64,000 bases of DNA from Pseudomonadales bacterium (GTDB taxonomy: Bacteria; Pseudomonadota; Gammaproteobacteria; Pseudomonadales; Azotimanducaceae): the NCBI GenBank assembly GCA_028277965.1, contig JANQFF010000383.1, positions 2,325 through 66,324 on the forward strand, given 5' to 3'. Below the pieces are notes generated by a model. It made no database searches. It saw nothing but the letters and a program-made list of their open reading frames with translations, and was not told the DNA's origin. The translations under genes and the position numbers were made by a program. Position 1 is the first letter of the stretch, and each line of letters begins with the position of its first letter. Shown piece by piece: positions 25,997 through 40,808 of the stretch.

Positions 25997-26041
25997 CTCT
26001 CGAAATGGAGGGGACGCGAGCTTTGTGTTTGTCAGTAGTCT
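25997..26041 (+). promoter_or_regulatory. Candidate activator-dependent promoter: palindrome CTCTC-GAAATG-GAGGG plus -10 TAGTCT
   Basis: Palindrome 25997-26012 and TAGTCT 26036-26041; the same arrangement occurs upstream of the amidohydrolase. Confidence 0.55.
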
Positions 26042-26072
26042 ACCGGGCGATAGGGGATACGGAGAGTTAAAC

Positions 26073-28412
26073 ATGCGGAACCAAATAATGAACTACTGTC
26101 TCGGGGCTCTAGCCTTTATGACGATGGCAATGCCAACAATCGTATTCGCGGAGTCGACCGAGGATTCTTCAGCCAGGGATACTACTATCGAAGAAGTTGT
26201 CGTCACTGCCCGGCGCAGAGCGGAAAGTCTGCAGGACGTACCTGTAACGGCCAGTGTGCTATCGGCCGATCTCATGGAGCGACAAGCTATCGACACCATG
26301 GATGAGATGGCGAATCGAATTCCCAATCTTGTCATCATCAAGGGTGCATCTGGTGGTGGCGGCTCATTGCGACTACGAGGAATTGGAACCAGCAACATCA
26401 GTGCGGCGTTCGACTCTGCAATTGCACTTAACATCGATGGTGTCGTTACCAACTCTATGAGGCTGGTGAACAATACGTTCATGGACTTAGAGCAAGTTGA
26501 ATTACTGAAGGGGCCACAGTCCTTGTACTATGGTAAAAGCGCATCCGCTGGTGTGCTAACGATGCGTTCAAACGATCCTGGCTCGGAATTTGAAGCGGAT
26601 GTGAGCGTCAGCTATGAGTCGGAACTGGATACAACGACGGTGTTTGGTGTGATATCCGGTCCGCTCTCAGATACCCTTGGAATGAGACTTGCACTGCAAA
26701 GCAAGGAAACCGACGAACTTTTCAAGAATACAGCCCCGGGAGTTCGTAATTCAGAACGAGGTGAGGAGAGTTTTGACGCTCGCTTAACAACCGTCTGGGA
26801 ACCATCAGACGTGTTGGATGTAAAGCTGAAACTCGCTTACTCCGACTTCGAAAACGATGGCACGTTGTCCAATCACGACATGTTGTGCCCAGGCACACAG
26901 CAAGATGTGATTGTCGGCGGAATTGTCTACGGCCCAAGTGGTCTCGACTGCGACCCGTTTGACCGCAAAATCCAGTTTGGAGATGCGAATCCAATCCTCC
27001 GAGGTAACTACCTGGGATGGGATGGGGTACCGTTCTCTGATCAAGAGGCAACTTTCGCCAGTCTTCAGATAGTGTACGACCTCTCCGATACCCTTACGCT
27101 TAACTCAACTACGGGTTATTTCGATATTGACGATGAGAGTGTAGATGCTTACGCCGGTAATCAGTTCGGTTTGGGCATAGGGCTGGCTCAGACCAGGCGA
27201 GAAGGTATATCCCAAGAAGTAAGAATTGAAAGCTCATTCGATGGGCCGCTCAACTTCATGGCGGGTGCCTACTATCAGGACCGCGAAATTGACTTTGAGT
27301 CAGGTGATGTTGCGCCGTTATTCCTGCCGATTTTCGGGCCGAATCCAGGAACTGGGGAAACGTTTGAGTGGCACAAGGTGCACGATACGGACGCAGAAAC
27401 CTGGTCTGCGTTTTTCAGTCTGGATTGGAGTGTTTCGGATCGACTGGATTTGACGACGGGTGTCCGCTACACCGATGAAGAAGTGTCCAACACGGTATCG
27501 TTGCCTTACGTCTACTTCTTCCTACCCGTGGCTATCCCCGTCGCCGGTTCGTCAGGGTTCCAGTCGTCGCCTATCGATTTCGACGACGACAACGTATCGC
27601 CCGAACTGAGCCTGCGATTCGCAGCGACTGATTCCACAATGATCTATGCGGCCTACAAAACCGGATTTAAGTCCGGCGGTGTAGACAATAGCGCGCTGCC
27701 CACCAACGTTTCGGCACCCGCTTTGCAGGGACTCATCTATGACTCGGAGACCTCTGATGGCTTTGAAGTTGGCACCAGATCTGATCTGTTAGACGGCAAG
27801 TTGCGCATCAACAGCACGTTTTATCGATACGTGTACGAAGACCTTCAAGTTCAAATATTTAATGGCGCGACCTTTCAGTATGTGACGCAGAACTTTGGTG
27901 AGGTGACAAGCCAAGGCGCTGAATTGGACTTAATCTGGGTCGTTGCGGGTGGTCTGGCTTTGAACGCGAGTCTCTACTATTCCGATTCTGAACTGACCGA
28001 CGACTTTTTTGATCAAACAAACGTAAATCAGAAAGGAGAGCAGATCACAGGAAACGCGGAGTGGACTGCTCAGTTAGGATTGGACTATTCCTGGGCTGTT
28101 GGCGACAACCTTAGAGCAGAGTTTTCTCTACACACGCGCTACTCAGACGACTACAACTTAGCCAATGAAAACCAGGTCTGGTACCGACAGGATTCTTATT
28201 GGGTTGTTGATGCCTATGCTGCCCTCGAAAGTGCGGACGAACGCTGGAGATTGTCGATTACGGGTATCAACGTGTTCGATGAAGACTATGCTCTCGATGC
28301 GGGTGCATCGACCGGTCGCATCCCTAACGTAGAAGACAATGGGCGTTTCGACCAAAGACTTACCATCGCACCGGGTCGTTTGTTTACCTTTGAAGCGAAG
28401 TATCGTTTCTAA
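26073..28412 (+). CDS. TonB-dependent outer-membrane receptor
   Basis: Signal peptide, TonB box EEVVVTARRR, LKGPQSLYYG, C-terminal YRF; ATG 26073 after GGAG. Confidence 0.95.
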   Translation: MRNQIMNYCLGALAFMTMAMPTIVFAESTEDSSARDTTIEEVVVTARRRAESLQDVPVTASVLSADLMERQAIDTMDEMANRIPNLVIIKGASGGGGSLRLRGIGTSNISAAFDSAIALNIDGVVTNSMRLVNNTFMDLEQVELLKGPQSLYYGKSASAGVLTMRSNDPGSEFEADVSVSYESELDTTTVFGVISGPLSDTLGMRLALQSKETDELFKNTAPGVRNSERGEESFDARLTTVWEPSDVLDVKLKLAYSDFENDGTLSNHDMLCPGTQQDVIVGGIVYGPSGLDCDPFDRKIQFGDANPILRGNYLGWDGVPFSDQEATFASLQIVYDLSDTLTLNSTTGYFDIDDESVDAYAGNQFGLGIGLAQTRREGISQEVRIESSFDGPLNFMAGAYYQDREIDFESGDVAPLFLPIFGPNPGTGETFEWHKVHDTDAETWSAFFSLDWSVSDRLDLTTGVRYTDEEVSNTVSLPYVYFFLPVAIPVAGSSGFQSSPIDFDDDNVSPELSLRFAATDSTMIYAAYKTGFKSGGVDNSALPTNVSAPALQGLIYDSETSDGFEVGTRSDLLDGKLRINSTFYRYVYEDLQVQIFNGATFQYVTQNFGEVTSQGAELDLIWVVAGGLALNASLYYSDSELTDDFFDQTNVNQKGEQITGNAEWTAQLGLDYSWAVGDNLRAEFSLHTRYSDDYNLANENQVWYRQDSYWVVDAYAALESADERWRLSITGINVFDEDYALDAGASTGRIPNVEDNGRFDQRLTIAPGRLFTFEAKYRF

Positions 28413-28431
28413 TTTGCTATAGGAGTAATTC

Positions 28432-29724
28432 ATGGAACCGAACTTACAAGACAAGCCTGTTGTACCGATGAGCGAGTACGTAGAACTACTCTCAGAGGGG
28501 TGGCGAGAGACGCTAAACAGCCGTCTCCAGATCTTCTTCAACCACATGAAAGAGACTTTGAGAGGCGAGACACAAACTATCTTATTGGTACTGAGGAATG
28601 CGCCACCGCATCTTTCGCTGGCGGACAATGTAGGCAAGCTCTCTATTGTCATTTCCGAATCGAAGGTCGAAGTCGCTCCCGATGGCAACGCCGAACCAGA
28701 CTTGATGATTGAAGCTGACTACACGCACGCCTTGCCTATTGCTCAGGCTGTTGGAGAAGAAGCGATATCCAGGGCGCTGCACGAAGCAAAACACAATTAT
28801 GGACAAGACTGTATTCGCGTCGAAGGCGCGTTGCCTGAGGGTCACCTGCGAACGATTCTGAGTGCAGCCTGGAACCATATGGCCAGACGTACGCTTGAGA
28901 ACCCAGACCTTGCTATGCGTGTTGTTAAGCAAGGGTTGACACGTCAGGTAAACGAGGTGGAAGAGCTCGGCTACACCGTGATTGAGAATGCCATTTCTCC
29001 AGAATTTACTGAATCTCTACGGAAGGTGATTCAGGAAGAGACGCTCTGTCACAACAATCTGCTGCAGGGCCGGGTCGATTCCAATGGTCTCCTCGGAAGA
29101 GGTCGATCTTTTGAGGACATTGTTCAAATACCGAAGCTCAGAACGGTGGCTGAGACAGCTCTCGGATGCAATATGACGCTCTATACAGTGGGTTCTGCTA
29201 TTTCGCTGTGCGGCCCCGGCAATGTACCCCTCCACACCGATATGCCAAATATTCCAGACCCGTACCCAGGCTGGGGGATGATCGGTGTTGCTGTGTGGGC
29301 GTTCGATGATTGGGTTGAAGAGGCGGGCACCACTTGGGTGATACCTGGCAGTCACAAGCTACGAAGATCACCAGGGCCTCAAGATACGATGGATGGCGGT
29401 GTTCCAATCTTGATGCCGAAAGGATCCGTGACGTTTTTTACTCACGGTATCCACCACTGGCAGGGAGACCGGAGCTTGCCGGAACCCAGAGTGACGCTTC
29501 ACAACGCGTACTGCAGAGCGTTTTTGCGACAGGCTGATGATTTCTCACATTTGGATGCCGCGTTGCATCGGAATTCACCGGTACTGTCGAATCTCGTTGG
29601 GCGCAATGATCACTGGGGATTGTCTGGGCATATGGGCCACGATCCAAGCCTTCAACAAACAGCGCTGAATCTAATGAACGACACCGTGCAACAAGCGTCG
29701 CTCAAAGCGGTTAGTGGAGGTTAA
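28432..29724 (+). CDS. SCP2-like domain fused to PhyH-family Fe(II)/2-oxoglutarate dioxygenase
   Basis: C-terminal domain has LHTD (HxD), WVIPGSH, distal HHW and R-x-T; the N-terminal ~150 aa resemble SCP2-like folds (LLSEGW, DLMIEADY). Confidence 0.78.
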   Translation: MEPNLQDKPVVPMSEYVELLSEGWRETLNSRLQIFFNHMKETLRGETQTILLVLRNAPPHLSLADNVGKLSIVISESKVEVAPDGNAEPDLMIEADYTHALPIAQAVGEEAISRALHEAKHNYGQDCIRVEGALPEGHLRTILSAAWNHMARRTLENPDLAMRVVKQGLTRQVNEVEELGYTVIENAISPEFTESLRKVIQEETLCHNNLLQGRVDSNGLLGRGRSFEDIVQIPKLRTVAETALGCNMTLYTVGSAISLCGPGNVPLHTDMPNIPDPYPGWGMIGVAVWAFDDWVEEAGTTWVIPGSHKLRRSPGPQDTMDGGVPILMPKGSVTFFTHGIHHWQGDRSLPEPRVTLHNAYCRAFLRQADDFSHLDAALHRNSPVLSNLVGRNDHWGLSGHMGHDPSLQQTALNLMNDTVQQASLKAVSGG

Positions 29725-29837
29725 CGCTTGGCGCTTGGGTAAAACTAACGCTGATTCCCCCCCGGCCTCCTCGCCCGTCCATGTGCTTACAAAAACTGAG
29801 TGATGGTCTGGCTGCTGGTGGATTCCGACCTATTCGA

Positions 29838-30644
29838 TCAAGGGTTCTCGTCGCGTCCAACGGTTCCAAGAAGACCGAACTGAACGGCCAATGCGACGCA
29901 GTGTGTAGCGCTGGCAGCGTTGAATTTAGTGCGACAATTATCAATATGGTATCTGACGGTGGTCGTTGATATGCCCACCTCTTCGGATACTTCTGCAAAG
30001 GACAGTCCGTTTGCAACAAGCTTTAGGCATTTCAATTCCTGTAGAGTCAGGTGTGGTAGAGATGCATCAATGGGATCTTTCGCATCAATGGTTTCCATGT
30101 GCGTCATAAACCTGTAGCCGAAATCCAAGAGCTCGGGAGATAGCTCATCCGCAATATTAGAAAGGACCTTGAGATCAACGGAACCACCCCATCCTATGTA
30201 CCCCACAGTTCCCATCGGTTGATGCAAGGGTATGACGAGTAGGTTTTCGACGCCGAGATCCTTCAACTGCTGATTGACGATCTTCTCATCCTGATCGAGC
30301 GGATCACGCCTCGTGTCTACAGTCAGGTTTGTGGCATATGGCAACCGGGTTGTCCAGACTCTCGAATCAGACTTGAGACTGAAGCGCCTTTTACGAACTC
30401 TTTCGAAAAACTCTGTCGGTAATCCTACGGCGTCCGCACCCGCAATAGATTCTGCGTTGTCCAGATTGAACACATCCCTGAACGCCACAGCTCGGCCAAG
30501 GCCGAACAGCGTTCCAGCGTCACTGAGCTTGTCGTAAGCGATTTCTTTTTGATCTAAGGAGCTAACCTCGCGTGAAATAGCGCGAAGTTCTTTCGCCAGC
30601 GCGGTCAGGTCGGATTCGCTTGTGATGCTCTCGTTTTGGTTCAC
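29838..30644 (-). CDS. LuxR-family regulator (autoinducer-binding-like domain plus HTH), no cognate luxI in window
   Basis: LTLQELKCLKLVANGLSFAEVSEEVGISTTTVRYHIDNCRTKF HTH; N-terminal IPLHQPMGTVG. Confidence 0.9.
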   Translation of the reverse strand: MNQNESITSESDLTALAKELRAISREVSSLDQKEIAYDKLSDAGTLFGLGRAVAFRDVFNLDNAESIAGADAVGLPTEFFERVRKRRFSLKSDSRVWTTRLPYATNLTVDTRRDPLDQDEKIVNQQLKDLGVENLLVIPLHQPMGTVGYIGWGGSVDLKVLSNIADELSPELLDFGYRFMTHMETIDAKDPIDASLPHLTLQELKCLKLVANGLSFAEVSEEVGISTTTVRYHIDNCRTKFNAASATHCVALAVQFGLLGTVGRDENP

Positions 30645-30783
30645 GCCACGCCCTGAGCTTTCGATGCGAGAGCAACCGCTTCATCAGCGTATGACTATGT
30701 TCTGGTTGCTCTAGGGCGTTGATTTTACATGAGATATCAGTTTGCACCTACACGCCTGAAACCAATGGCTGAACCTTGCAATC

Positions 30784-31596
30784 TCAGCTAAAAAAGATGC
30801 GTTCTGCTGTTTTCGAGGCGTAGTTTTCAGCAGCATCGCCAGTGAAGTGGTTGTTCGCTCCTTCAGGTCGCTTTTCATCAAATGAAAGTGCAGGAAAATC
30901 GGTTGCCCACATCAAGCGATCAGCTCCGTCATCGTTTCCAAAGTCGATAATCTCGCGGGGCAGTCGCTGCTCTGCGATGACTGATGACATCCAGTACAAC
31001 CTCGGCCACTTACGCATCAGGGCTACACATGAAGCGGCCCACGGTAGACCACCGTGACACATGACTACGTTAAGACTTGGGAAGTGCTCCATCACTGCAT
31101 CCAAGGCCATTGGATCCTGGAGCTGGTCAGAGATAGGAATATGGGGCATGCCCACTGTACAGCTAAGCACCAGACCTTCCTCTTCACAGGCTGCATAGAT
31201 AGGGAAGTACTTCGGGTGATCGTAGGGCAGACCGGAAAAGACACCTAGGACTTTGATGGATCTATAGCCCCGTTCCTTATAGCTTCGGATTTTGCGCATG
31301 TCTTCTAGCGCCGAAGAAGGTTGAACCGCCACACATCCGCCAAAGCGATCTGGGTGAGATTCTATTGCGGTATCAATGGCGCTTTGCAGGAGTTCCGAAC
31401 CGTAGGGATCTGTTAGCACCGCCTTTGTTACGCCACCCGAATCCATGAGATCAACTAAGGCATCCAAGCCGGTATACGCGGCTGAGTTCTTCAGCAGGTT
31501 AGGAGAACGCTTTGTACCGATCTCCAAGAGCTTTGGATCGAAGGGCGACGCAAATTCGGGGTGAAAAGCATTTATCCAGCAATCTATAAGTTTCAT
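30784..31596 (-). CDS. Amidohydrolase_2 family protein
   Basis: IDCW start, YFPIYAAC, CHGGLPW, WATDFP. Confidence 0.85.
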   Translation of the reverse strand: MKLIDCWINAFHPEFASPFDPKLLEIGTKRSPNLLKNSAAYTGLDALVDLMDSGGVTKAVLTDPYGSELLQSAIDTAIESHPDRFGGCVAVQPSSALEDMRKIRSYKERGYRSIKVLGVFSGLPYDHPKYFPIYAACEEEGLVLSCTVGMPHIPISDQLQDPMALDAVMEHFPSLNVVMCHGGLPWAASCVALMRKWPRLYWMSSVIAEQRLPREIIDFGNDDGADRLMWATDFPALSFDEKRPEGANNHFTGDAAENYASKTAERIFFS

Positions 31597-31668
31597 TGTC
31601 CTTCCAATCTCCCTTTTTTTGCCATGATCGATTGCCCGGTTGGCTTATCCGGTCCTAAAAACTGTTCG

Positions 31669-31776
31669 ATACTACCGTGAGCAGGTGAACTGAATACCCT
31701 CGATTCTGAGGGTCTTGTTGTAAGCGGAGCGGCTTTGGAGATCGATGCCAGCCACCTGCACCCTCGAAATAGAGGG
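31669..31776 (-). promoter_or_regulatory. Candidate promoter with two CCCTC-N6-GAGGG palindromes and -10 TAGTAT
   Basis: Palindromes at 31697-31712 and 31761-31776; TAGTAT on the minus strand at 31674-31669. Confidence 0.55.
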
Positions 31777-31848
31777 GACTCTGTTCTACTTCGAACGTCC
31801 CCTTCAGACCTCATAGCAGCCATGCAGTCTCTCTGGCACGATATTGGT

Positions 31849-32340
31849 ATGGACGCTTTTCACACCCTTGCTGAAGTTGCTGTCGCGATCGCGGGGTTCT
31901 CGTCTCTCGCAATAGTTTTTCGCGGGCAGCGCGTGGACTGGGACGGACAGGAGTACGTCAGCCTGGCGTTTGCCATGTGCTGGAGCATCGGGAGTGTATT
32001 TCTTGCCCTCCTTCCGGTCATCCTGAATAACTTTGGTTTCGACCTGATGACATCGTCCAGGGTTGGGCTTTTCCTTACGGCCGGTTACATGTTGCTGGTT
32101 GGTGGAATCCTCACAATGGTGCGGAGACGAATTCAGTCTCAAGGTGGTGGCAAGGCACGGCTCAGTCTGGGGCTCACCTCGCTCTATGGACTGATCATGG
32201 TGGGTGCCCTGGGGGCAGGATCGGGACTCATTCCGGGCCCGGCAGATGGCTGGTATGCGGTTGTGATTGCGCTCCTGATGGCGCATGCAACCGCAGAACT
32301 GGGGCAACTGGTGATCAAGGTGGTGCGCCAGGGCGGGTAG
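31849..32340 (+). CDS. Hypothetical integral membrane protein
   Basis: About five hydrophobic helices; start ATG 31849 (or 31822). Confidence 0.75.
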   Translation: MDAFHTLAEVAVAIAGFSSLAIVFRGQRVDWDGQEYVSLAFAMCWSIGSVFLALLPVILNNFGFDLMTSSRVGLFLTAGYMLLVGGILTMVRRRIQSQGGGKARLSLGLTSLYGLIMVGALGAGSGLIPGPADGWYAVVIALLMAHATAELGQLVIKVVRQGG

Positions 32341-35698: not shown

Positions 35699-35884
35699 GT
35701 GGCCGCCTTTATTCTGACAATGGCGACCTCGCTGTTCATCGGAGGTGGCCTCTGGCTTGCACTGGGTTCCAGGTTTTCGTTCAGCGATGACCCACAGCAG
35801 AACGAGGCGCTGAACTTTGCGGCCTTCTTTATCGGCTCTATGCCGGTGAGTTTTGTGCTGGTGTTCTTCGGACTGGGTGGCTAG
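35699..35884 (+). CDS. Small two-TM membrane protein
   Basis: 61 aa, two hydrophobic helices, 5 bp after the SDR stop. Confidence 0.6.
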   Translation: MAAFILTMATSLFIGGGLWLALGSRFSFSDDPQQNEALNFAAFFIGSMPVSFVLVFFGLGG

Positions 35885-36142: not shown

Positions 36143-36769
36143 ATGAAGTTATCGATAGAAATTAATACTGTTCGAGGTTTTTTGGACCCGGAAGAGGGTG
36201 CCCGACTGTACAACCTGGCGTTGGAGGCAAGCGCGTTTGGACCGTGTCTCGAGGTCGGGAGCTACTGTGGCAAATCGACCATGTACCTCGGAACAGGCGT
36301 TCTTGATGGGGGCGGGCTTTTGTATGCGATCGATCATCACCGCGGGTCCGAGGAACACCAGCAGGGTGAGGAGTATCACGACCCCGAACTCTACGATGAA
36401 GAGCTGGGACGGATGGACTCCCTGCCGGAATTCCGGCGCAACATCGCGCGTGCCGGACTGGAGGACCATGTCGTTCCTGTGGTCACATCGAGCGCCAATG
36501 CAGGACTGTTCTGGAAGACACCACTTGCTCTGGTGTTCATCGATGGTGGCCACAGCGAAGCAGCCGCATTGACGGACTACCACACATGGTCGCCGCACGT
36601 GATGCCGGGTGGGTATCTCGCCATTCACGACTTGTTTCCGAATCCTGAAGACGGAGGGCAGGCGCCATACAATATCTACAAGCTCGCGATGGCCTCAGGC
36701 GACTACGAGGAATGCGAATGGACGAAAACGTTAGGTGTGTTGCGTAAACAGCGTGTGGGCGGACGATAG
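36143..36769 (+). CDS. meT1: Class I SAM methyltransferase, MeT1-like (MMP 1-O-methyltransferase homolog)
   Basis: RGFL, LEVGSYCGKS, IDHHRGSEEH, FIDGGH, IHDLF; context with manT and mmpH homologs. Confidence 0.72.
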   Translation: MKLSIEINTVRGFLDPEEGARLYNLALEASAFGPCLEVGSYCGKSTMYLGTGVLDGGGLLYAIDHHRGSEEHQQGEEYHDPELYDEELGRMDSLPEFRRNIARAGLEDHVVPVVTSSANAGLFWKTPLALVFIDGGHSEAAALTDYHTWSPHVMPGGYLAIHDLFPNPEDGGQAPYNIYKLAMASGDYEECEWTKTLGVLRKQRVGGR

Positions 36770-37738
36770 TTCGTAAAGCGCATCGGCAGCCAGCAATATG
36801 GCACCGGCTGTCCAGGTCGGGCGTTCGTCGGGCCAGTGTACGTCCTCATCGAACACATAACCGGTCCACCAGCTTCCATCTTCCACCTGGAATCGCTGCA
36901 GGCTTTCGAACAGGGTCTGCGCCCGCGGTCTGGCGTCTGCAGCAACACAAGCCATTGTGAGTTCGCATGTTTCTGCGACGGTGACCCACGGTCGTTCGAC
37001 AACGCAACGGCAACCATAGCCTTCTTCGACAAACTCGTGCCAGCGCTCGGTGAGCCGCGCCCGCGCTGCATCGCCGCGAACGACGCCGGTCATGACCGGG
37101 TAAAACCAGTCCATGGAATAGCGGGCTTTGCTTTCCCAGGTACGGTCGAAGCGGTCGGGGCGATTGATGAGCGCATCGCCAAGCCTGGTCCGTGATGTAA
37201 GAAATGGGGCAGGGTCGTCTCCGACGGCCGAGGCTATACGTGCGCCACATTCGAGAGATTTGAAGATTGAGCTGCAGCCGGTAACGAGCGCGTCGCGGCT
37301 GATGCCCTTGACGGCATCAACCGCCCAGAAAACTTCACCGGTGCCGGTTTGCAGTTCCATGACCCATTGCAGGGCCTTGCGCACCATTGGCCAGAAGACG
37401 TCCAGCGCGTTGTGATCGCCGCTGGCCAGATAGTGGTGCCACAAGCCAGTAGCTGGATAAGCGACGAAGTTGGTTTCAGCGCGGGTTGCGTCAGCGGGAC
37501 CTTCCGCCGTGTAACCTGCCCACCAGGCGCCGTCTTCCCGTTGGGCGTCTGCCAACCATTCGAATCCGTGGTGCACCTGGTCCTGGTAGCCGGCCACTGA
37601 GAGACCCATCAGGGCTTCAACATGGTCCCATGGATCGATGATACCGTCCTTGAACCACGGTACAGCCCCCTGCTCAGTTTGCAGGCTCGCGATGTAGGCC
37701 GCGGTGTTGCTCAGGCTGCTGTTCAGATTACTGTTCAT
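36731..37738 (-). CDS. mmpH: MmpH-like (alpha/alpha)6 glycoside hydrolase (often auto-annotated as prenyltransferase)
   Basis: GAVPWF...DPWDHVE, ETNFVAY, YSMDWFYPV, PWVTVAETCEL, PTWTAGA and Q-x-x-x-G-x-W type repeats. Confidence 0.72.
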   Translation of the reverse strand: MNSNLNSSLSNTAAYIASLQTEQGAVPWFKDGIIDPWDHVEALMGLSVAGYQDQVHHGFEWLADAQREDGAWWAGYTAEGPADATRAETNFVAYPATGLWHHYLASGDHNALDVFWPMVRKALQWVMELQTGTGEVFWAVDAVKGISRDALVTGCSSIFKSLECGARIASAVGDDPAPFLTSRTRLGDALINRPDRFDRTWESKARYSMDWFYPVMTGVVRGDAARARLTERWHEFVEEGYGCRCVVERPWVTVAETCELTMACVAADARPRAQTLFESLQRFQVEDGSWWTGYVFDEDVHWPDERPTWTAGAILLAADALYELSSAHTLFTQHT

Positions 37739-38433
37739 CTATTAACAAAGTACATCACGATACTTTTTCCAAGTATTGGGTTGAGAAGACGGTCCAGTGT
37801 GCGTGTCAACCACGGAGCCTCGAGAAGATCCCATACCAGCATCCGGTGATAGGTCCGGACAAGGGGATTATCGTCGGCGGTGTTCCAGAAGAGACATTTG
37901 AGCCACCAGTAGGGTACGTGCAATGCGTGCGACCAGTGTCTGGATACCCGCTGCATCTCATGAGCCTCGACAGCGTTGCGTAAACGCCGCGACCGGAAAA
38001 TGCGAACGTGACCACCCTCAACCTCGTGGTACTCGCGGCTCAGACGCCAGCACACCCATTCGGGGAAAAACCGGGGAACACTGACAGCGAAAAGCCCGTC
38101 CGGCTTGAGCACCCGTTTGATTTCTTCGAGAACGGCTTCATAGTCCGGGATGTGCTCGAGGACTTCTGCACAGATGACCTTGTCGAATGTCGAGTCTGCA
38201 AACGGCAGGTGCTTGCCGTTCCCGCAGATGAATGTGCACTCTGGGCTGGAGAAATCGCTCAGGCGCGAGTGAGCGACCTTGAGGTCATCTCTGGCCAGGT
38301 CAACACCGACTACCTGGCTTTTGGCGAGCAGACTTGCGGTGATCGCATGCCGGCCTTCGCCACACCCGAGATCGAGTATCCGGTCTCCATCAGCTATGTC
38401 GAGCAGTTCCCATCGGACTGTATCGAGACTCAT
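37735..38433 (-). CDS. Class I SAM methyltransferase (putative MMP 3-O-methyltransferase homolog)
   Basis: LDLGCGEGRH, AEVLEHIPD, VSVPRFFPE, GGHVRIF, HALHVPYWWLKC; 4-bp overlaps with both neighbours. Confidence 0.85.
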   Translation of the reverse strand: MSLDTVRWELLDIADGDRILDLGCGEGRHAITASLLAKSQVVGVDLARDDLKVAHSRLSDFSSPECTFICGNGKHLPFADSTFDKVICAEVLEHIPDYEAVLEEIKRVLKPDGLFAVSVPRFFPEWVCWRLSREYHEVEGGHVRIFRSRRLRNAVEAHEMQRVSRHWSHALHVPYWWLKCLFWNTADDNPLVRTYHRMLVWDLLEAPWLTRTLDRLLNPILGKSIVMYFVNR

Positions 38434-39722
38434 TGGGTCAACACCCGTCGGTAGTAGTCTTCGAGTTCTCGTGCAGCGCGGTCGGCGCTGAAGTGCTCCT
38501 CGATGCGGGAGCGACCCAGAATGCTGAGGCGTTCGCGTTCAGCCGGGTCGTGGAGCAATCCGGCGATTGCTTGTGCAAGCTGGTGGCTATCGCCCCGGGG
38601 AACGACAACACCCGCGTCACCAACGACTTCCGGTAGTGCGCCCCCATCAGCTGCGACAACGGGTACTCCGCAGGCCATCGCTTCCGCTGCGGGCAAGCCA
38701 AATCCCTCGTATTCGGAGGGGACAATGGCAATGGTCGCCTGGCTGTAAAGATCGGCGATATCCGTATCGCTGACCCCGTGGACAAAACGGATCGAACCGT
38801 TCAAGCCATGCGCTCGTATGAGCGATTCTGTGGCACCGCCTGGTTTAGGCTTGCCGATGAACACCAACTCCAGGTCAGGGAATGATTGTTTCAGTTCCGC
38901 AAATGCGGGGATGAGATGTTGAGTACCCTTCAACGGCTGGTCGGCACTGGCAGTAGTGATCAGCGTGTGAGATTCCCGGTTGAGGTTGTGCGGAGCAAAC
39001 AGATCGAGATTTATACCGTTTGGAACGACGCTGATTCTTTGTGCATCGACACCAAACGCGCGTGCGATGTCATTTCGCGAGTTCTCACTGACCGTGACGA
39101 TGTACTGAAGCTTTCGGGTAACCCGGGTCTGCATCCTGAGAAAGTGGTGCCAGCGTTTGATCAGCAGCCGCAGCCCCCAGTTCTCCGCGTGGGCAACGGC
39201 GATATCCCGGTCGTGAGTAATCGGATGATGGATGGTTGTAACCAGTGGCAGACCCAGGTCCTGCAGGGCGAGCACACCGGGTGAAAGCGTCTGATTGTCG
39301 TGAATGATGTCGTATCGTTTACCCGTTTCCTTGAGGTAGGCATAGACCCGCCGCCCGAAGGTATATGGTTCAGGGAAACCGCCTGTCATCATGCTCAGCC
39401 ACTCAAACGTATCGGTGAAGGACCGCAGGTGTCGGAGCCGTAGAGCCAGGGCGGGATTGGTTTTGTCGTACAGGTTCAGGCCGGGCAGGCGAATCAGCTT
39501 CACCGGTGAATCAGGTTCGAGGGAGGGGTAAGGCTCTCCGGCGATAATGTGAACCTCGTGTCCACGCGTTGCCAGGCCTTCAGCAACGTTTTTAATGTAC
39601 ACACCCTGGCCGCCGCTGAATGGATTGCACCGGTAGCCAAGCAGCGCGATGCGTAACGGCTGGTCAGTCAATCCGTCTGGAGTAGTAACTTCAGAAGTTG
39701 CGATGCGCGCGGCATCTGGCAT
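38430..39722 (-). CDS. manT: GT4 glycosyltransferase, ManT-like
   Basis: ALLGYRCNPFSGGQGVY, GGFPEPYTF, IHDNQ, TIHHPIT, PLKG, EGFGLPAAEAMACG. Confidence 0.75.
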   Translation of the reverse strand: MPDAARIATSEVTTPDGLTDQPLRIALLGYRCNPFSGGQGVYIKNVAEGLATRGHEVHIIAGEPYPSLEPDSPVKLIRLPGLNLYDKTNPALALRLRHLRSFTDTFEWLSMMTGGFPEPYTFGRRVYAYLKETGKRYDIIHDNQTLSPGVLALQDLGLPLVTTIHHPITHDRDIAVAHAENWGLRLLIKRWHHFLRMQTRVTRKLQYIVTVSENSRNDIARAFGVDAQRISVVPNGINLDLFAPHNLNRESHTLITTASADQPLKGTQHLIPAFAELKQSFPDLELVFIGKPKPGGATESLIRAHGLNGSIRFVHGVSDTDIADLYSQATIAIVPSEYEGFGLPAAEAMACGVPVVAADGGALPEVVGDAGVVVPRGDSHQLAQAIAGLLHDPAERERLSILGRSRIEEHFSADRAARELEDYYRRVLTQ

Positions 39723-39772
39723 CGAAGAGCGCCCTTCTTGTTATTTTGCTCGGGGCGCGGATTCTATGAATA

Positions 39773-40684
39773 TCAGTGAGTGTTGTCGACGACCAGCTCT
39801 GGCGCGGCGTGCCCGAGATCTTCCTGCGCTGTTCGGTTGTCAGCATGCAGGTGCCGGTAGAGGTTGGCAATCCATTGCTGCCCCTGCTGTGTTCGCCTGA
39901 GGTAGTCGAGCCCCTCCTTGATGTAGGGGTGAACCTGGTTGTAGAAGAACTCGGGGAACCCAGCCCTGAGATCGCCCGGGTTATCGAAGCCCATGCGCCC
40001 GGCATCACCGGTTTCGACGAATTCCGCGAAGAGACGGGAGAGTTTCTCGAGATACTGAGGGTCCGCCATCTGCCCGATGAGATCAGCCGAGCGGACAAGC
40101 CCGGGCAAGCTGTCTGTGTCCGTATAACCCGGTCCCGACGGTACCGGGAAGCGTGTCATTTCGATACAGGCTCCGATGGTTCCGGTATCGAGGGCGGGAT
40201 CGTTGGCGAATCGCTCGGTGACGTAGAGTTTTCCACGAGACACATGGTACGGGGTCATAAACGCATCGGTACATCCAGGCGGAGGTGAGATGCGTTGCCC
40301 TTCATCGTTGATAGCGCAGGAAGTTGCGTCGTCATCGGACAGAAGGTTGCGGAGGTACCCGACATCATGAAACAGCATCGCAACCACTGCCTGCAACCAG
40401 TCATGTGCAGTGAGGTCACCGCGTGCAAGTTGGCGGCCCTGCAGGATACTCTGACCCACGTCGGTCACGAGGATCGTGTGTTGCAGGTCGTGATACGGGC
40501 AGTCGCAATTCAGCAGCGTTTCGAGCGCGGTGCGAGTGGCCTGTTCGAGACTCTGCTCCTGAGCGCTGTCAGGGGCGGAAAACAGGCGACGGAACTCGTT
40601 GAGCGAGTGCTCGACGAACGCATCGATGATTCTGCTGTTGGGGTTGAACATGGAATGAGTGTACGGCAACGAAGTTGACGTCAT
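39773..40684 (-). CDS. HD-domain metal-dependent phosphohydrolase
   Basis: YHDLQHT, LFHDVGY, HVSR, SADLIGQ; start ATG 40684 or 40651. Confidence 0.85.
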   Translation of the reverse strand: MTSTSLPYTHSMFNPNSRIIDAFVEHSLNEFRRLFSAPDSAQEQSLEQATRTALETLLNCDCPYHDLQHTILVTDVGQSILQGRQLARGDLTAHDWLQAVVAMLFHDVGYLRNLLSDDDATSCAINDEGQRISPPPGCTDAFMTPYHVSRGKLYVTERFANDPALDTGTIGACIEMTRFPVPSGPGYTDTDSLPGLVRSADLIGQMADPQYLEKLSRLFAEFVETGDAGRMGFDNPGDLRAGFPEFFYNQVHPYIKEGLDYLRRTQQGQQWIANLYRHLHADNRTAQEDLGHAAPELVVDNTH

Positions 40685-40764
40685 CGTGCTCTGTGCCTCA
40701 CTTCCACAGGGTTCTGGCGCGGTGGTAGCGGGTTGCTGCGGACTAGTGACAGCCTGCCATAAAA

Positions 40765-40808
40765 TGAATATCATGCATGTTAACGACTTCCGGCATGAGC
40801 GAGATTCA
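40765..40808. promoter_or_regulatory. Two MetR-type boxes
   Basis: TGAATATCATGCA (40765-40777) and TGAGCGAGATTCA (40796-40808) versus consensus TGAANNTNNTTCA, just upstream of metR. Confidence 0.6.

Follow-up and report, generated by a model that had tools for sequence, protein, structure and literature searches.

A probable counterpart of the mycobacterial methylmannose polysaccharide gene cluster in marine Gammaproteobacteria

The stretch of DNA analyzed here, hereafter the window, comprises 64,000 nucleotides of contig JANQFF010000383.1 from a Pseudomonadales bacterium (assembly GCA_028277965.1), and at positions 36143–39722 it carries four intact open reading frames (ORFs) that resemble the genes for synthesis of methylmannose polysaccharide (MMP) in mycobacteria. 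Three of them lie on the minus strand and encode a ManT-like GT4 glycosyltransferase of 430 aa (38430–39722; ORF list and Pfam GT4 match), a pMeT3-like class I S-adenosylmethionine-dependent methyltransferase of 232 aa (37735–38433; Pfam Methyltransf_11/25/31), and an MmpH-like (alpha/alpha)6-barrel protein of 335 aa (36731–37738; recognized by phmmer against the PDB entry 7QSJ and by an AlphaFold model). In this order they are coupled by ATGA stop/start overlaps at 38430–38433 and 37735–37738. The fourth gene, which encodes a MeT1-like methyltransferase of 208 aa (36143–36769, plus strand; Pfam Methyltransf_24, PF13578), is convergent with the other three, and the ORF list and the sequence place its 3' end in a 39-bp overlap with that of mmpH (36731–36769). 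A preliminary description of this DNA had reported the four genes, the 4-bp overlaps and the 39-bp convergent overlap, and coordinates and sequence bear this layout out in every detail.

To assign the four proteins we compared them with sequences of known structure and with a mycobacterial reference cluster. In phmmer searches against the PDB, the best match of the GT4 protein is ManT from M. hassiacum (7QSG; E value 2.4e-93, the next match being at 4.7e-24), that of the barrel protein is MmpH from the same species (7QSJ; E value 5.8e-86, the next at 0.038), and that of the 208-aa methyltransferase is M. hassiacum MeT1 (6G7D; E value 8.5e-58), followed by designed repeat proteins that match over a short stretch. 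The 232-aa methyltransferase matches only generic methyltransferases in the PDB (approximately 2e-17), where there is no MMP structure of pMeT3 for it to match. Domain models were less informative: NCBIfam returned nothing specific for the ORFs of the cluster, and the only Pfam match of the barrel is a sub-threshold one to squalene cyclase-like proteins. The reference cluster was obtained by a search with M. hassiacum MmpH, which led to a Mycolicibacterium MmpH (P0142) and its genomic locus (L081). In this locus genes for a GT4 protein (411 aa), a methyltransferase (241 aa), and MmpH (354 aa) follow one another with overlaps throughout, and a convergent Methyltransf_24 gene (234 aa) overlaps by 4 bp, an architecture that is the same as that of the window. 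BLASTP matches to the reference proteins cover 94–97% of each window query and have identities of 42.5% for ManT (E value 3e-104, 94% of the length), 43.5% for pMeT3 (2e-74, 97% of the length), 45.0% for MmpH (9e-93), and 48.3% for MeT1 (2e-66). In reverse, the four reference proteins used as tblastn queries against the window matched no genes other than these four (E values of 3e-59 to 7e-95), and because nothing else in the window is matched, the arrangement is not a product of chance. The preliminary description had named ManT, MmpH, and MeT1 together with a putative 3-O-methyltransferase, had likened the gene set to the mycobacterial MMP locus, and had pointed to reciprocal searches and structural superposition as checks; the PDB matches, which stand far above the next ones, the pMeT3 match, the shared gene order with a convergent MeT1, and the reverse search all speak for this assignment, as does the superposition given below. 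From these comparisons of sequence we regard it as very likely that each ORF is the specific counterpart, that is, the ortholog, of one mycobacterial MMP gene.

The residues discussed for mycobacterial MmpH and ManT are conserved in the window. In MmpH, Asp47 and Asp50 are the candidate catalytic acids and Glu262 is the base (Maranha et al. 2023, PMC9883506), and Trp49, Asn101, Phe102, Thr163, Met215, Tyr219, Glu265, and Trp315 line the subsite (PMC9883506). All 11 are retained in the barrel of the window, where they correspond to D35, W37, D38, N90, F91, T153, M209, Y213, E256, E259, and W309, and they are invariant or nearly so across 84 aligned sequences. Two motifs hold part of this set, DPWDHVE from residue 35 and AETCE from residue 255; that the aspartate pair of the former and the glutamate of the latter are the catalytic residues had been proposed in the preliminary description, and this agrees with the assignment of D47, D50, and E262 by Maranha et al. 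(2023). The AlphaFold2 model of the barrel (pLDDT 93.5, pTM 0.93) finds 7qsj_A as its first match in Foldseek, superposing with TM scores of 0.94/0.91 and a root-mean-square deviation of 1.1 Å over 326 columns. The next match has a TM score of 0.68, and all structures other than 7QSJ remain at TM scores of 0.77 or less with E values of 5e-9 or worse.

For ManT, Gly15, His142, Lys240, Asp293, Glu313-Gly314-Phe315, Leu317, and Glu321 have been discussed (PMC9883506), and the GT4 protein of the window retains all of them as G37, H165, K265, D319, E339-G340-F341, L343, and E347. Its N-terminal acceptor domain is as well conserved as its donor domain (43% versus 46%). The 232-aa methyltransferase and mycobacterial pMeT3 have a family-specific C-terminal region in common, and the MeT1 proteins of the window and of mycobacteria share the blocks GxYCGKS, DHHxGSEEHQ, FIDGGH, IHD, and GGxAP, which are largely kept across 76 aligned sequences. 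A simple hydropathy test, as opposed to a dedicated localization predictor, revealed no hydrophobic segment and no signal-like N terminus in any of the four proteins (maximal Kyte-Doolittle mean over 19 residues of 1.39 or less), and by this measure the enzymes appear soluble and cytoplasmic in character. On the strength of these similarities the GT4 protein is a predicted GDP-mannose-dependent alpha-(1->4)-mannosyltransferase, the 232-aa protein a predicted mannose 3-O-methyltransferase, the barrel a predicted endo-alpha-(1->4)-(methyl)mannosidase, and the 208-aa protein a predicted reducing-end 1-O-methyltransferase; we infer the specificities of all four from those of their counterparts.

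The cluster is common among relatives of the host. A word-indexed search returned more than 4,600 matches to the MmpH-like family, and those that carry names come from Pseudomonadota and Gammaproteobacteria metagenome-assembled genomes (MAGs) and are annotated as "prenyltransferase" or "hypothetical protein", whereas "MMP endo-(1,4)-3-O-methyl-alpha-D-mannosidase" was seen as a name only among matches to the mycobacterial query. A scan of one genome per species identified at least 588 loci encoding a relative of the barrel, and the best 80 of these were used for comparisons of loci. The barrels of these 80 loci are 52–67% identical to that of the window, and all are from Gammaproteobacteria except for one from a bin labelled SAR324. 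Represented genera include Congregibacter, Halioglobus, Haliea, Luminiphilus, Pseudohalioglobus, Seongchinamella, Litorivivens, and Oceanicoccus along with many Pseudomonadales MAGs, and some loci lie on complete chromosomes; complete genomes that carry the cluster are, for example, CP136865 and CP001614. Using tblastn, we found the order ManT, MeT3, MmpH with a convergent MeT1 in 73 of the 80 loci, and most of the remaining seven are interrupted by a contig end. The individual genes for ManT, MeT3, MmpH, and MeT1 are present in 76, 76, 80, and 77 loci, respectively, and no ORF beyond these four is conserved, as each flanking ORF occurs in at most 33 of the 80 loci. In 76 of 82 loci the convergent meT1 either overlaps mmpH or is no more than 100 bp away from it; Mycolicibacterium (4 bp), Teredinibacter turnerae (50 bp), and a contig from Chloroflexi (75 bp) are examples. 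The same cluster occurs in the cultured shipworm symbiont T. turnerae T7901 and in a second lineage of Pseudomonadota. An exhaustive search of wider scope yielded 1,504 sequence clusters (50% identity, E values up to 1e-3), 209 of which reach 1e-30, and its labelled members include Desulfovermiculus, Thermodesulfobacteriota, Chloroflexota, Acidimicrobiales, Phycicoccus, and Dermacoccus. Mapping across Proteobacteria, which had been put forward with the preliminary description, thus places the cluster in many Gammaproteobacteria.

The history of the cluster in the window was assessed from composition, gene order, and phylogeny. The four genes match their flanks in GC content and in GC content at third codon positions (GC3), and over approximately 12 kb around the cluster the window and the nearest MAGs have the same gene order (ECH, carboxyltransferase, SDR, a small ORF, the cluster, HD, LysR, MBL, and others). 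Identities to these MAGs, determined for 15 neighboring genes, are 57–89% in the flanks and 61–69% in the cluster. A neighbor-joining tree groups the gammaproteobacterial sequences in a single clade, which has Teredinibacter as its sister and stands well apart from the mycobacterial clade. The composition, together with 12 kb of synteny at comparable identities, argues for vertical inheritance as opposed to recent transfer; because synteny, composition, and tree agree, we regard the cluster as a long-resident chromosomal module and neither a recent import nor an assembly artefact. Recent horizontal transfer was considered and rejected given that GC and GC3 match the flanks and that the gammaproteobacterial clade stands apart from the mycobacterial one. 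Also rejected was the idea that the cluster is anomalously divergent (approximately 66% identity compared with approximately 89% for the SDR and LysR genes), since its values fall inside the 57–89% range of the flanks. We conclude that the gammaproteobacterial locus has been inherited vertically and is orthologous to the MMP cluster of mycobacteria, with the gene order manT-pmeT3-mmpH and a convergent meT1.

MMP is a cytoplasmic polymer in which 11–14 units of 3-O-methylmannose are joined by alpha-(1->4) linkages into a linear chain that bears a 1-O-methyl aglycon. In mycobacteria, cleavage of the mature polymer by MmpH yields tetra- and pentamannosides that are 1-O-methylated, as well as hepta- and octamannosides whose reducing end is free; ManT extends every one of these products from GDP-mannose, MeT1 methylates the free 1-OH, and pMeT3 is presumed to 3-O-methylate the added residues (PMC9883506). 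Old chains thereby provide the starters for new ones, and mycobacteria that lack MmpH contain no MMP and grow more slowly at 15 °C (PMC9883506). Because all four counterparts are present here in the mycobacterial arrangement, with the active-site residues of MmpH and ManT conserved, we infer the same cycle for the gammaproteobacterial host. Four soluble enzymes of the cytoplasm would sustain a pool of short, linear chains of alpha-(1->4)-linked 3-O-methylmannose: the MmpH-like barrel would cut existing chains internally to give oligomers, the MeT1-like enzyme would methylate the newly exposed reducing-end 1-OH, the ManT-like enzyme would extend the non-reducing end from GDP-mannose, and the pMeT3-like enzyme would 3-O-methylate the residues so added. 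As chains would be cut internally and re-extended, fragments of old chains would prime new ones. The best reading of the locus is hence, by analogy, a cytoplasmic and self-priming 3-O-methyl-alpha-1,4-mannan pathway, and we assign a probability of about 0.7 to its product being an MMP-type polymer made by such a cycle. The existence of the polymer in this host, its size, and its methylation pattern are predicted from the enzymes, and its role may be acyl-chain buffering or cold adaptation, as has been proposed for mycobacteria.

Several points weigh against this proposal. Identities of 43–48% to the mycobacterial enzymes fix neither the sugar, nor the linkage, nor the chain length. The guanine-contacting Asp293 of ManT, which is D319 in the window, is replaced by T or A in most gammaproteobacterial homologs, where an acidic residue is usually adjacent. 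The window, at 64 kb, contains no genes for GDP-mannose synthesis. The rationale of modulating type I fatty acid synthase (FAS-I) is not obviously transferable to a Gram-negative bacterium with type II fatty acid synthesis. Moreover, pMeT3 is biochemically uncharacterized even in mycobacteria (PMC9883506), and the searchable literature holds no chemical evidence for 3-O-methylmannose or a polymethylated polysaccharide in any gammaproteobacterium.

A serious alternative, though on balance an unlikely one, is that the homologous cluster makes a chemically different cytoplasmic methylated glycan that departs from MMP in chain length, acyl groups, methylation pattern, sugar, or linkage. The modest identities to the mycobacterial enzymes and the variation at the Asp293 position are in keeping with it, as are the hexapeptide acyltransferase genes that adjoin the cluster in T. 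turnerae and on a Thermodesulfobacteriota contig, for whose possible products the acetylated MMP of Streptomyces griseus is a precedent, and a Chloroflexi variant with two GT4 genes and no MeT3, which indicates that the family diversifies. Against a different glycan speaks that the 11 MmpH subsite residues are all invariant, including the hydrophobic ones thought to hold the mannose of the adjacent subsite, that the acceptor domain of ManT is conserved as well as its donor domain, and that the cluster in the window has no acyltransferase beside it.

O-antigen loci often encode GT4 enzymes and methyltransferases, and the four genes might accordingly build or modify a surface polymannose, either a lipopolysaccharide (LPS) O-chain or a capsule with 3-O-methylmannose, the more so as 3-O-methylmannose homopolymers are known from the LPS of one Gram-negative bacterium (cited in PMC9883506). 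We consider this quite improbable: neither the module nor its immediate surroundings encode an exporter (ABC, Wzx, or Wzy), a polyprenyl-phosphate glycosyltransferase, or a chain-length regulator, the neighbors being genes of acyl-CoA metabolism and regulators; the flanks vary by clade while the four genes move together; these genes are four specific orthologs of cytoplasmic MMP enzymes and encode no membrane segments; and an endo-hydrolase makes no sense in a locus for O-antigen assembly. Even less credence is due to a catabolic locus that scavenges foreign methylated mannans, which the homology of the barrel to glycoside hydrolases would allow, or to an assembly or binning artefact with actinobacterial DNA, which comes to mind because the contig of the window derives from a metagenome assembly. 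A scavenging locus is at odds with the absence of transporter, binding-protein, and secretion signals and with three of the four genes being biosynthetic. An artefact is contradicted by identities of approximately 45% to actinobacteria compared with 52–67% to the 80 best-matching loci, all but one of which are labelled Gammaproteobacteria or its orders and some of which are on complete chromosomes, by a GC3 equal to that of the flanks and 12 kb of flanking synteny with related MAGs, and by the separation of the gammaproteobacterial from the mycobacterial clade. We regard catabolism and artefact alike as excluded because of gene content, synteny, and composition.

The proposed MMP-type pathway has its closest parallel in the mycobacterial cluster meT1-mmpH-pmeT3-manT of M. 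hassiacum and M. smegmatis (Maranha et al. 2023, PMC9883506; reportedly also Ripoll-Rozada 2019). Both comprise the same four families, and their gene order and orientation agree, including a meT1 that is convergent and overlapping. They also agree in the catalytic and subsite residues of MmpH and ManT and in the fold of MmpH, and in both cases the proteins are soluble and cytoplasmic. Unlike the mycobacterial cluster, that of the window is in a Gram-negative marine gammaproteobacterial host and a different neighborhood, its proteins are only 43–48% identical, and its product is a predicted one; ManT of the window has approximately 22 extra N-terminal residues, whereas its MeT1 and MmpH are shorter at the ends. 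The FAS-I and mycolate context of mycobacterial MMP is not known from such a host. Another producer of an MMP-type polymer outside the mycobacteria is S. griseus, whose ManT homolog is 53% identical to that of M. hassiacum (PMC9883506); this organism is an actinobacterium and its polymer, acetylated MMP (AMMP), is acetylated, whereas no acyltransferase gene adjoins the cluster in the window. Mycobacteria have one other cytoplasmic polymethylated polysaccharide, 6-O-methylglucose lipopolysaccharide (MGLP), for which sequestration of acyl-CoA has been proposed; it differs from MMP in its sugar, its primers (glucosylglycerate), and its enzymes, and none of its genes were seen here. Methyl-capped polymannose O-antigens with a 3-O-methylmannose cap occur in Proteobacteria. 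A polymer of 3-O-methylmannose also forms the LPS O-chain of Oligotropha carboxidovorans (as cited in PMC9883506). Gram-negative LPS of this kind differs from MMP in having alpha-(1->2)/(1->3) linkages and a lipid carrier, in being exported to the surface, and in being made by enzymes that are unrelated to the MMP set and include no endo-hydrolase.

The alpha-(1->4)-mannosyl linkage, like MMP itself, is described as rare, and both have been chemically demonstrated only in mycobacteria and Streptomyces; a survey of MMP genes published in 2023 was confined to Actinobacteria (PMC9883506). The searchable literature contains no report of MMP or methylmannose for Gammaproteobacteria, Halieaceae, Teredinibacter, or marine bacteria, in agreement with the initial statement that the polymer is chemically known only from actinobacteria. 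The window and its relatives would therefore seem to represent an MMP system in a phylum from which it had not been reported, and one that is apparently widespread there; as judged from gene content, this "actinobacterial" polymer probably has a far wider distribution than the published record suggests. More tentatively, and with the odds somewhat against it, cytoplasmic polymethylated polysaccharides could be a widespread bacterial device and not an actinobacterial peculiarity tied to FAS-I and mycolic acids; the makers, all using one self-priming cycle of hydrolase and transferase, would then be abundant marine Gammaproteobacteria (OM60/NOR5 Halieaceae, Teredinibacter, and others), some Desulfobacterota, and Chloroflexota. 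If so, these polymers would have a general role, for example in buffering acyl chains or lipids or in cold adaptation, and methylated sugars from them could enter marine organic matter. The role of MMP-type polymers has been debated for decades and always in terms of mycobacterial lipid synthesis, and an apparently functional cluster in marine Gram-negative bacteria moves this question to hosts without a mycobacterial envelope. Among them are cultivable, fast-growing strains suited to gene knockout and sugar analysis; isolates that carry the cluster include T. turnerae T7901, Congregibacter brevis IMCC45268, C. variabilis IMCC43200, Litorivivens lipolytica CECT 8654, and Pseudohalioglobus lutimaris HF004. 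For annotation, hundreds of genes now called "prenyltransferase" or "hypothetical protein" are probable methylmannan hydrolases.

Variants of the cluster were found in more distant loci. In a Chloroflexi metagenome contig (L085, 3330–7644), two tandem GT4 genes accompany MmpH and a convergent Methyltransf_24 gene and there is no pMeT3-like gene, and the polymer made may differ in its methylation or its linkage. An Actinomycetota MAG (L088, 5001–6773) encodes a 590-aa fusion of a pMeT3-like protein with MmpH that is flanked by a GT4 gene and a convergent MeT1 gene, a Rosetta-stone arrangement that would link 3-O-methylation to hydrolysis; its neighbors encode an acyl-CoA thioesterase, a fatty-acid hydroxylase, and a glycerol-3-phosphate acyltransferase. 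A hexapeptide-repeat acyltransferase gene adjoins the cluster in T. turnerae T7901 (L084, 7670–8395) and in a Thermodesulfobacteriota locus (L087, 1912–2703), which hints at acylated variants like the acetylated MMP of S. griseus. Two contigs from soil and sediment MAGs (L047 and L044) have an intact MmpH and fragmentary tblastn matches to ManT, MeT3, and MeT1, reflecting either a decaying cluster or frameshift errors in assembly. In the bin labelled SAR324 (L076), MmpH falls inside the gammaproteobacterial clade and meT1 lies upstream and is not convergent, which could reflect either misbinning of the contig or transfer and rearrangement of the module. Finally, a 740-aa protein with an MmpH-like C-terminal domain (L089, 5001–7223) is encoded among genes for acyl-carrier-protein and AMP-binding (adenylation) proteins, which stand in place of the GT4 and methyltransferase genes, and this gene context therefore indicates that the barrel was recruited to a different pathway.

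The surroundings of the cluster in the window provide further observations. Its neighbors are acyl-CoA metabolism genes and regulators, and no linked exporter genes were found in the window; genes for acyl-CoA enzymes adjoin the cluster in several lineages, and this anecdotal association would favor a lipid-related function. A Pfam match to "GT4-conflict" raised the possibility of a defense or conflict system, which we rejected since PADLOC reported only generic methyltransferase similarity. A promoter-like sequence, TCGACA-17-TAGAAT, was located by consensus match approximately 40 bp upstream of the manT start (39761–39789, minus strand), and the ribosome-binding site AAGAAGGG lies between it and manT; as promoter-like sites in this region are no more numerous than in shuffled sequence, the site is a weak candidate. 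An Rfam scan of the window returned no RNA elements, and it also contains no tRNAs. At the other end of the cluster, the deeply conserved convergence of mmpH and meT1 might, as a speculation, couple the expression of chain capping and chain cutting.

Upstream of manT by 50 bp and on the same strand is an HD-domain gene of the Npun_R2479 family (39773–40774; NCBIfam score of 292 bits against a cutoff of 400 bits, Pfam PF28239). It was detected by tblastn in 26 of the 80 loci, mostly those nearest to the window, and was rejected as a conserved member of the module because it is confined to one clade. The 450-bp gap between the SDR gene and meT1 contains an ORF of 54 aa (35720–35884, plus strand) for a small, hydrophobic two-helix protein that is kept in the nearest MAGs at the DNA and protein level (53–63%). 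Farther away, at approximately 26000–32000, GC content is 0.51 compared with 0.56–0.60 elsewhere in the window, and the genes there, which include those for a TonB-dependent receptor, a PhyH-family dioxygenase, a LuxR-type regulator, and an amidohydrolase, may have been acquired as an island.

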